Part shown: positions 7,961 to 9,956 of the stretch, piece after piece
How positions within the stretch are numbered: the first letter of the stretch is position 1
How the letters are laid out: each line of letters starts with the position of its first letter
Virus genome (UHGV): UHGV-0105960
From: a virus
Reading direction: 5' to 3' (one strand)
DNA length: 10,683 bases
Translations under genes and position numbers: made by a program
The notes under the pieces: generated by a model
Told to the model about the DNA's origin: nothing
Seen by the model: only the letters and a program-made list of their open reading frames with translations
Database searches by the model: none

Positions 7961-8037
7961 TGGTGCACCATTCAGGACTCGAACCTGAAACCGATAGCTT
8001 AGAAGGCTATTGCTCTCTCCGGTTGAGCTAATGGCGC
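7961..8037 (-). tRNA. tRNA-Arg (anticodon UCU), CCA-encoded, phage-borne
   Basis: Minus-strand sequence GCGCCAT-TA-GCTC...GAGC-A-ATAGC-CTTCTAA-GCTAT-CGGTT-TCAGG-TTCGAGT-CCTGA-ATGGTGC-A-CCA folds as a canonical cloverleaf: 7-bp acceptor stem (one G-U), anticodon loop C-U-[UCU]-A-A, T-loop TTCGAGT. Differs from host argU as I recall it. Confidence 0.85.
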
Positions 8038-8042
8038 TAATT

Positions 8043-8117
8043 TGGCGGGACAGGAAGGATTCGAACCTTCGACCATTCGGTTAACAGCCGAACGCACAAC
8101 CGCTGTGCTTCTGACCC
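8043..8117 (-). tRNA. Probable tRNA-Asn (anticodon GUU), CCA-encoded; one acceptor-stem mismatch, possibly degenerate
   Basis: Minus-strand sequence GGGTCAG-AA-GCAC-AGCGGTT-GTGC-G-TTCGG-CTGTTAA-CCGAA-TGGTC-GAAGG-TTCGAAT-CCTTC-CTGTCCC-G-CCA: cloverleaf with anticodon loop C-U-[GUU]-A-A and T-loop TTCGAAT, but a T-T mismatch at acceptor pair 4:69. Lies 5 nt from the Arg tRNA. Confidence 0.6.
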
Positions 8118-8124
8118 TGAAATG

Positions 8125-8149
8125 AAAAAGGCCGCGAAATAGCGCAGCC
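8125..8149 (-). terminator. Intrinsic terminator (minus strand) immediately upstream of the tRNA pair
   Basis: On the minus strand: GGCUGCG-CUAUUU-CGCGGCC (7-bp stem with one U-G pair, 6-nt loop) followed by UUUUUCAUUU. Confidence 0.55.
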
Positions 8150-8182
8150 CTTAATGCTTTATGGTTTTGCCTGAATTAGGCG

Positions 8183-8209
8183 AAAAAAAGCCCGCTCAGA
8201 GGGGCGGGC
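8183..8209 (-). terminator. Intrinsic terminator (minus strand), candidate tR'-like late terminator
   Basis: On the minus strand: GCCCGC...GCGGGC GC-rich 6-bp stem (8190..8195 / 8204..8209) followed by a run of 7 U (8189..8183). Confidence 0.6.
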
Positions 8210-8487
8210 AGAAGGTAGGAAATACTGATTCTTCAACGGTTCGAGGCGCACCTAATAGTCCGAGCTTCCGATTTACCAGGAGAGCGCTCGTTTTCCGTTA
8301 CTACCTTTTAAACATAGCTGGAGAAGCCGAAACGGCAACCCCACTATCAAATAGCTTATGTAGCATTGCATTATGGTGCCGGGTGCCTCCCGGTGAGCAT
8401 GTCCCAGTCGACATGGCCCGCGCTGCATTTACAGATCACTGTAAGTGACTGGTCGCCCCTCCGCATAGGGGGATTCACCACACGAAT

Positions 8488-8517
8488 AGATTAACAACAT
8501 GTTAATTTTCTGGTCAA
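8488..8517 (-). promoter_or_regulatory. Candidate sigma70 late promoter (pR'-like) downstream of Q
   Basis: On the minus strand: -35 TTGACC (8517..8512), 18-bp spacer, -10 TAATCT (8493..8488). The -10 match is weak; this is a sequence-only prediction. Confidence 0.25.
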
Positions 8518-8654: not shown

Positions 8655-8681
8655 AAAAAAGCCCCGGCGGATTGCCGAGGC
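8655..8681 (-). terminator. Intrinsic terminator (minus strand) about 90 nt downstream of the Q stop
   Basis: On the minus strand: GCCUCGGC-AAUCC-GCCGGGGC hairpin (8 bp with one mismatch) followed by UUUUUU (8660..8655). Confidence 0.5.
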
Positions 8682-8770
8682 TAATTTTACAAACTGGTAT
8701 ATGACTATCATCTTCATGCCGCCACTTAAAGTTAAGGCAGCATATCAAAGTAGACTCAAATATGACGTAT

Positions 8771-9460
8771 TTAATTGACTTTTGCAAGACCCTGCTGCGA
8801 AAAAGTCGCTTTTTGTTGTGATCGTGTTCTCACAGCACAGAGAAGAGAGTCGCTATCAAGCCGCTTAAAAATGGCGCACATAGCCCGCCAGTAATCAGCG
8901 TAGTTATGGCACCAGTTATCAGGCTTAACGCCACACAGGGCTGCAAGGTCCTGGTGCTGATATACATACTTACCCGCCAGCTCTGCTTTCACGTCCTGTG
9001 CCGCCAGCCATATCAGTTTCTTCAGCCGCTCCATCGTCTTGCCGGCCACTTTCTTAGCGCCGAGTTGATCACGGAATTCTTCCCATGCCCACTGTGTTAT
9101 CGCTACCTGATACTCAAAGCGGATATTGTCGCTGTAGTTCCACAGCAACCAGGATTTCTGGTGGTCTTCCAGCGACAGGAGGGCGCGGCGCCAGCTGGCT
9201 GTCGAGTATTCAACGGGCAGAACGAGAGCGATTGAGGAACCCTTAGCGCGGGACTGGCTGCCGCTCATCGGCGGTCCATCCGGGTTAACCATTTTTTGCT
9301 TCACCTCGCTATACACCTTCTTCCGGCCACGGCTGCGCGCCGTAGCGGTAAATTGCGCGTTCTCTGCAAAAGCTACCAGTTGCCCTTTCGTCGCACCACT
9401 CAGATCGGCGGTGGCCACTATCAGCTGCTGGCGAACAAATTCCAAGTATTGAGCTGTCAT
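8771..9460 (-). CDS. Late-gene antitermination protein Q-like (229 aa)
   Basis: ATG at 9460 with GGGAGAAG Shine-Dalgarno. Canonical lambdoid position: after rusA and the ylcG-position ORF, before the terminator/tRNA region and lysis genes. Size resembles the larger Q-like proteins of cryptic E. coli prophages. Family assigned by synteny and recall only. Confidence 0.6.
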   Translation of the reverse strand: MTAQYLEFVRQQLIVATADLSGATKGQLVAFAENAQFTATARSRGRKKVYSEVKQKMVNPDGPPMSGSQSRAKGSSIALVLPVEYSTASWRRALLSLEDHQKSWLLWNYSDNIRFEYQVAITQWAWEEFRDQLGAKKVAGKTMERLKKLIWLAAQDVKAELAGKYVYQHQDLAALCGVKPDNWCHNYADYWRAMCAIFKRLDSDSLLCAVRTRSQQKATFSQQGLAKVN

Positions 9461-9477
9461 GCTGCTTCTCCCAGGCG

Positions 9478-9597
9478 CTTATAGATACGGACGAAATTGC
9501 GTAATATTTTGTAGTCGACCAGCACGGTGCCGCGGCTACGCAGGAGGCGAAGCTTTTGCCAGCGGTCGCGGATGCGTTCGATAACGTCACGGCTCAT
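9478..9597 (-). CDS. Small 39-aa ORF at the ylcG position, translationally coupled to rusA (absent from the ORF track)
   Basis: ATG at 9597..9595 overlaps the rusA TGA (ATGA); frame reads [39 protein letters not shown] and stops at TAA 9480..9478, 17 nt before the Q start. Same position as ylcG between rusA and the Q gene in DLP12. Confidence 0.45.
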
Positions 9598-9956
9598 GCG
9601 GACTCCATTTCGGTAATGGTTAGCTCAAGCCGCCCACCTTTGACGACAGGCATTCTCTTCACGCTGTAGTAGTCAACCTGCTGGTCATCGAGCCAGAAAC
9701 CCGATTTCGTCAGGGCGTCGAATGCTGCCTTTTGCAGATTGTCCAGGTCACGGCGCCGGCGATCCGGCATGTGACACTCAATACGGATTTTCAATGGCGT
9801 GGCCAGGCCGATATCAAGCATCGAGTCTTTGATGATTCTGGCGACGCTGTCGCGGGATGCCTGCCCTTCCGCGCTGATGTGTGTGCGTCCCCGGTTGTGC
9901 CGGTAGTAGCGGTTGTTGCTTGGCGGCCAGGGTAATGAAATGCGATATTGGTTCAT
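9594..9956 (-). CDS. rusA: Crossover junction endodeoxyribonuclease RusA (Holliday junction resolvase)
   Basis: 120 aa from ATG 9956: [33 protein letters not shown]...[38 protein letters not shown]...[10 protein letters not shown] is near-identical in pattern to E. coli RusA. The ORF-track start at 10019 is a GTG extension. Confidence 0.93.

Follow-up and report, generated by a model that had tools for sequence, protein, structure and literature searches.

The stretch between rusA and the late-antiterminator gene Q of a lambdoid phage genome very probably holds a 46-codon gene of the YlcG family

What, if anything, is encoded between the Holliday-junction resolvase gene rusA and the late-antiterminator gene Q? 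We addressed this question in UHGV virus genome UHGV-0105960, whose whole analysed stretch of 10,683 nt is referred to here as the window. The initial annotation had proposed an unannotated ORF of 39 aa at 9478-9597, taken to be ylcG of DLP12-like prophages, and had set aside a 93-aa ORF in another frame as probably spurious. Our analysis indicates that positions 9597-9457 of the minus strand are a genuine coding gene of the YlcG family (probability roughly 0.93), situated just upstream of Q in the nin region, as in many enterobacterial lambdoid prophages. The coordinates of this gene, its junctions and the surrounding features are given in Table 1.

Table 1. Features of the window at and around the ylcG locus.
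Feature	Position	Strand	Basis or remark
ylcG-family CDS, 46 codons and TGA stop	9457..9597	minus	ORF listing; NF033498; PHROG 2705; RefSeq-identical CDS; dN/dS
ylcG Shine-Dalgarno, GGAG	9603..9606	minus	within last rusA codons, 5 nt before ATG; direct reading
ylcG start/rusA stop overlap, ATGA	9594..9597	minus	ATG 9597-9595; rusA TGA 9596-9594
Q Shine-Dalgarno, GGGAG	9468..9472	minus	within YlcG codons Leu42-Gly43-Glu44; 7 nt before Q ATG
Q start/ylcG stop overlap, ATGA	9457..9460	minus	ylcG TGA 9459-9457; Q ATG 9460-9458
rusA, Holliday-junction resolvase, 120 aa	9594..9956	minus	PF05866, E=7.8e-19; NF007305, 235 bits; upstream neighbour
Q, late antiterminator, phage-82 type, 229 aa	8771..9460	minus	PF06323, E=1.1e-79; downstream neighbour
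93-aa ORF	9309..9590	minus (another frame)	longest open frame listed over the stretch
Antisense ORF, 41 aa	9459-9584	plus	opposite ylcG
ORF of 67-69 aa	10246-10455	minus	PHROG 1212 (unknown function), E=4.5e-31
Weak promoter-like site	8711-8684		near the hairpins between Q and the tRNAs
Intrinsic-terminator-like hairpins	8660-8682, 8190-8209, 8127-8152	minus	3 found, 0.8 expected from shuffles
STnc100 sRNA family (RF02076)	8316-8510	minus	Rfam, 79.7 bits against a gathering threshold of 47; full model length
tRNA-Asn(gtt)	8043-8117	minus	between Q and holin gene
tRNA-Arg(tct)	7961-8037	minus	between Q and holin gene

The ORF was longer than had been reported. Reading the minus strand, on which ylcG and all the genes around it lie, we found a frame of 46 aa instead of 39; codon 40 (9480-9478) is AAG (Lys), and the TAA within TATAAG near 9478 is out of the ylcG frame. 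Nor does the ORF end 17 nt short of the Q ribosome-binding site, as had been stated, for it contains the GGGAG at 9472-9468 and overlaps the Q start. The upstream junction reads ...ACCGAAAT GGAG TCCGC ATGA GCC... and the downstream junction reads ...CGC CTG GGA GAA GCA GCA TGA CAG.... Both junctions, rusA/ylcG and ylcG/Q, show the overlap geometry of coupled gene pairs, with the Shine-Dalgarno sequence inside the upstream gene. The overlap of the ylcG ATG with the rusA stop (ATGA, 9597-9594) was as originally described, and the proposed coupling of ylcG to rusA was upheld on anatomical grounds, the ATGA overlap and the GGAG at 5 nt being those expected of a coupled start. The size of the ORF alone is not beyond chance, as the ORF listing holds 34 ORFs of at least 25 aa within the 2.2 kb around ylcG. 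Rather, it is the overlaps on both sides, the Shine-Dalgarno sequence and the family matches that mark the ORF as real.

Family searches identified the product. The peptide matched the NCBIfam model NF033498 (YlcG_phage_expr, YlcG family protein) with 83.3 bits against a cut-off of 30, spanning model positions 1-40 of 41, and PHROG 2705 with E=5.8e-26 over positions 1-45 of 46. At 46 aa, it falls within the family length of ~43-46 aa, and it carries the family core RxRWxxLR[LI]xRxxG[ST]V[LM][VT]DY[RK]IL[RK]N, with every near-invariant position present (W13, L16, R17, R20, G23, V25, D28, Y29, I31, L32 and N34). Its location is also that of the family, in the nin region of a lambdoid prophage directly upstream of the late-antiterminator gene. 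In RefSeq, an identical protein (WP_001548467.1), encoded by a 141-nt CDS of E. coli ECCRA-119, is named 'YlcG family protein', and that CDS has 4-nt overlaps with both rusA and Q. This name and the two profile matches confirmed the ylcG identity that had been proposed. We found 218 homologues. Where a source name accompanied one of the 120 listed, that name was mostly 'YlcG family protein', and the proteins so named came mainly from Klebsiella. In this large protein collection, a precomputed PF26818 domain was present on every homologue among the matches listed, and a search of a local copy of Pfam with the 46-aa YlcG gave no match. The family is small, comprising 34 clusters at 50% identity (E<=1e-3) among 1.84 billion representatives.

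ylcG was known before this analysis and receives routine annotation in RefSeq, with named members in K-12 (b4509) and phage 82 (X92588) and a curated NCBIfam model. Its earlier description as unannotated therefore applied to the ORF track of the initial annotation, and not to RefSeq, which annotates the identical gene. The record of Klebsiella phage 2b LV-2017 (KY271395) has no feature at 1501-1638, where a 100% identical YlcG is encoded, and in several other phage records ylcG is labelled merely 'hypothetical protein'. An enterobacterial ylcG was also present on two tiny contigs under actinobacterial names, P0002 (233 nt, 'Mycobacterium tuberculosis') and L018 (667 nt, 'Actinomadura rugatobispora'), both of which most likely represent assembly contamination.

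We then considered conservation of the frame across 130 loci, comprising 45 from species-representative genomes, 80 from IMG/VR, 4 annotated references and the window. Both sets of related loci were gathered with the family alignment, and the gene was sought by HMM search of stop-to-stop translations. The 45 species-representative loci were all from Enterobacteriaceae, except for the 667-nt probable contaminant contig (L018). ylcG was found in 129 of the 130 loci, the exception running off its contig end, and one further copy was cut at its start, leaving 128 that could be assessed. In this phylogenetically clustered set, in which 80 loci are close IMG/VR relatives, the frame was intact in 128/128 loci, encoding 46 aa in 110, 45 aa in 13 and 43 aa in 5.

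Substitutions within the frame were distributed as in a protein-coding gene. Among the 91 unique 46-codon sequences, the entropy at codon positions 1, 2 and 3 was 0.40, 0.38 and 0.93, respectively, the pooled pN/pS was 0.35, and the median pairwise dN/dS was 0.21, a value that is approximate because recombination is frequent. In the last five codons, synonymous change was reduced (pS 0.27 vs 0.46) and the amino-acid constraint was relaxed (pN/pS 0.81), as predicted by their dual use as the Q Shine-Dalgarno sequence. Such a substitution pattern is typical of translated genes under purifying selection. A frame conserved in related phages, with changes biased to synonymous sites, had been named beforehand as a check on the ORF, and this is what the relatives displayed; given the signature of purifying selection, the loss of the frame among relatives that had been held to speak against the gene was not observed. 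A conserved-DNA recombination 'linker' was rejected, as conservation was at the amino-acid level and not at third codon positions.

The neighbours of ylcG were constant in type downstream and varied upstream. The gene order in the window is DUF1367, PHROG 1212, ybcO, rusA (363 nt in the RefSeq homologue), ylcG, Q and then the lysis genes, and in the remainder the genes for holin, lysozyme, Rz, terminase and portal form an unremarkable lambdoid late region. A late-antiterminator-type gene lay directly downstream of ylcG in 128/128 loci, belonging to PF06323 in 74, PF06530 in 28, PF03589 in 24 and PF06576/DUF1133 in 2. Q antiterminator names belong to the first three of these families; DUF1133 denotes a protein of unknown function, here in the place of Q. 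Upstream of ylcG we found NinG in 63 loci, RusA in 34 and, in one more, a distant member of the RusA family that clustered alone; the other upstream genes encoded three small unknown proteins (11, 7 and 5 loci), HNH (2), Dam (1) and one family-less protein of 96 aa. At the junction with the preceding gene, 125 of the 128 loci permit an NTGA overlap (ATG in 117, GTG in 5, TTG in 3). The ATGA overlap with the downstream gene was present in 117/128, and 8 loci had gaps of 61-85 nt. Most relatives carry GGAG or GGAGG at the spacing seen in the window, regardless of the upstream family.

Comparison with individual strains placed mosaic recombination joints exactly at the two ends of the gene. Nucleotide homology to E. 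coli XYEH3314 ended exactly at the ylcG stop (~9457), with a different Q family beyond, and homology to E. coli JNQH498 started 9 nt before the ylcG ATG (~9606), with ninG in place of rusA. Upstream genes of both families, rusA and ninG, end alike in E-[AS]-A-stop, the codons of which encode the ylcG Shine-Dalgarno sequence. In permutation tests, similarity among YlcG sequences showed no co-variation with the family of the Q gene (p=0.32) or with that of the upstream gene (p=0.41), and hundreds of YlcG pairs that are at least 95% identical adjoin different neighbour families. On these values we rejected the idea that co-variation points to a physical partner in either direction. Since the YlcG sequence varies independently of both neighbours, a specific partnership with RusA or Q appears unlikely. 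The sole mildly new point is positional: ylcG invariably precedes a late-antiterminator-type gene, whichever of four unrelated Pfam families that gene comes from, and mosaic joints lie at either end of ylcG.

Among known systems, phage 82 shares the layout of the window. Its orf45 (X92588, rus-orf45-Q) belongs to the same family, is 46 aa long and is 48% identical to the YlcG of the window, having diverged chiefly towards its two termini. As in the window, it has 4-nt overlaps with rus and Q, and the annotated Q ribosome-binding site lies inside orf45; the phage 82 Q is of the same family as the window Q and 62% identical to it over its full length of 229 aa. K-12 YlcG (b4509, cryptic prophage DLP12) is likewise of the family, sharing the core RxRWxxLRLxRxxG[ST]VLxDY[RK]IL[RK]N at 43% identity, and its gene also follows rusA with a 4-nt overlap. 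However, DLP12 has an 85-nt gap between ylcG and quuD, quuD is of another Q family (PF06530), and the K-12 YlcG C-terminus does not hold the Q Shine-Dalgarno sequence. The DLP12-like position first described was thus correct as to the slot, after rusA and before a Q gene, but the arrangement is nearer to that of phage 82, because both junctions overlap in the window whereas DLP12 has the gap.

YlcG proteins of Klebsiella and Raoultella prophages (e.g. P0005, P0021 and Klebsiella phage 2b LV-2017) are 83-100% identical to that of the window, with the same 46-aa length and the same overlaps, but these loci often have NinG upstream instead of RusA and other Q families downstream. Lambda NinH resembles YlcG in that its small nin-region gene comes after one for a junction resolvase (ninG) and overlaps it by 4 nt, and NinH shares the 9-residue string RLxxSRGTV. 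It differs in its length of 68 aa and in being followed by ninI rather than Q. Homology to NinH, a lead suggested by the slot after ninG, was rejected on an hhalign probability of 0.8% with 9 aligned columns.

Three other readings would deny the stretch a ylcG gene or place something else on it. That it is a non-coding spacer carrying the Q ribosome-binding site, with the ORF a chance open frame, might be argued from the abundance of short ORFs in this 2.2 kb and the empty local Pfam search. However, curated HMM matches far above threshold, the frame kept in every assessable locus, the three-base periodicity of variation within it, and a start position retained even though its codon varies among ATG, GTG and TTG leave this reading with a negligible chance of being right. 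Lambda carries an antisense promoter (paQ) inside Q, and a structured RNA element or a similar antisense site could occupy the stretch instead of, or besides, the gene; in favour of this reading, the frame opposite ylcG has no stops in 74/128 loci. Yet such an open antisense frame is the expected product of CGN-rich arginine codons and is most simply their by-product. The predicted fold was weaker than that of shuffles (z=+2.0), no Rfam family overlapped 9457-9597, and matches to the CII box TTGCN6TTGC were mismatch-only and occurred at the chance rate (16 found vs 14.4 expected). On these grounds, both an RNA element and a lambda-type CII box or paQ at ylcG were rejected, and we regard this whole reading as very improbable. 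As to the 93-aa ORF being a real gene that overlaps Q, its rank as the longest listed frame is outweighed by the absence of any Pfam, NCBIfam or PHROG match, by its overlap with two genes that are both strongly supported by family matches, and by the relatives with the same Q family, in which its frame stays open for 29 codons at the median and for at least 90 in just 5/66. The likelihood that it is a gene is vanishingly small; as far as family matches and relatives can tell, it is spurious and not conserved, as the initial annotation had suspected.

A further reading accepts that ylcG is translated but holds that the act of translation, and not the peptide, is what matters, the ORF serving as a relay or leader that delivers ribosomes to the Q start. 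It would account for the position of ylcG immediately 5' of a late-antiterminator-type gene in 128/128 loci regardless of which of the four unrelated Pfam families that gene belongs to, for a Q Shine-Dalgarno and start embedded in or overlapping the ylcG 3' end in 117/128, and for the lack of co-variation with either neighbour. A pure relay, however, would not need the strongly conserved amino-acid sequence, with its low dN/dS and near-invariant residues, and DLP12-type loci retain the protein despite the 61-85 nt before the downstream gene. In a variant of this reading, YlcG would be a cis-acting arrest peptide gating Q, but the conserved core lies mid-protein and not at the C-terminus, where an arrest motif acting at the Q start would be expected. 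We consider both forms improbable.

With ylcG read as an ordinary protein-coding gene of the nin region, the anatomy of its junctions suggests how it may be expressed. It would be translated as part of the early-right operon, with ribosomes that stop at the rusA UGA able to reinitiate on the ylcG AUG that overlaps it. After translating ylcG, and with it the Q Shine-Dalgarno sequence in its last five codons, ribosomes would terminate on the Q AUG, so that Q synthesis would be coupled, at least in part, to the translation of ylcG. We put the chances that this coupling is important at about even. It does not seem obligatory, because Q has a good Shine-Dalgarno sequence of its own and the 61-85 nt gap occurs in 8 loci, including DLP12. 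Furthermore, the geometry is not special to ylcG, as 4-nt overlaps are the norm along the nin operon (ninG/ninH and ninI/Q in lambda, ybcO/rusA here), and the coupling may simply reflect the usual packing of phage genes, not a dedicated control. In K-12, rusA-ylcG has been treated as one operon that is activated by HusR in stationary phase (PMC12844172), with Hemm et al. 2008 cited there for a stationary-phase induction of ylcG.

A stronger proposal makes YlcG a companion of the late-gene switch, locked in position, and a device dedicated to setting the amount of Q and hence the timing of lysis; it draws on the unvarying place of ylcG before a late-antiterminator-type gene and on the Q ribosome-binding site usually present in its last codons. 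Such a device might work through obligatory translational coupling, or through a basic hairpin acting on a common component of Q systems (RNA polymerase elongation complex, NusA or late leader RNA). We think it unlikely that YlcG has this role.

The protein itself is small and basic, at 5.7 kDa and with 13 Arg+Lys against 5 Asp+Glu; its pI of 11.4 is close to the family median of 11.1. AlphaFold2, run with a 33-sequence alignment, predicted a two-helix hairpin (helices 3-18 and 25-45; mean pLDDT 82.5), with the conserved residues gathered near the loop and at the beginning of helix 2. A Foldseek search of this model against the PDB returned generic helical hairpins alone, the best being type III secretion needle proteins at E=0.83, and the one meaningful match in BFVD was another YlcG, from Erwinia phage Midgardsormr38. 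The YlcG profile found no PDB sequence even at an E of 10, and a PADLOC search with YlcG found none. Arginine-rich-motif peptides of the lambda N type use an arginine-rich helix to bind a cognate RNA hairpin; YlcG resembles these RNA-binding peptides in composition, with 13 Arg+Lys in 46 residues. We tentatively suggest that the arginine-rich hairpin might serve a dispensable, accessory 'nin' role by binding a host factor or nucleic acid, although this is a possibility that we would rate below even odds. In an ASKA over-expression screen, ylcG was among the clones that altered glycogen content (PMC2853380).

As a discovery, ylcG matters little, and its practical value lies in annotation. ylcG is shorter than common ORF-size cut-offs allow, and some phage records still lack it; where it is left out, the spurious 93-aa overlapping ORF can be called instead. 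Its fixed position and mosaic joints also provide a cheap, testable handle on Q dosage in phage-82-like and Klebsiella prophages.

Several other features of the window were noted. The STnc100 match sits between Q and the lysis genes and may represent a short late-leader transcript such as Q acts on by antitermination. A 95-aa plus-strand ORF (8161-8448) that overlaps it had no Pfam match and is probably spurious. The three terminator-like hairpins, which lie on the coding strand in the interval from Q to the tRNAs, are candidates for terminators that are read through by Q. In E. coli XYEH3314, the same Asn-Arg tRNA pair comes after a Q gene of another family. The PHROG 1212 ORF, which RefSeq names 'hypothetical protein', lies between the DUF1367 gene and ybcO, in the slot that ninE occupies in DLP12 and phage 82.
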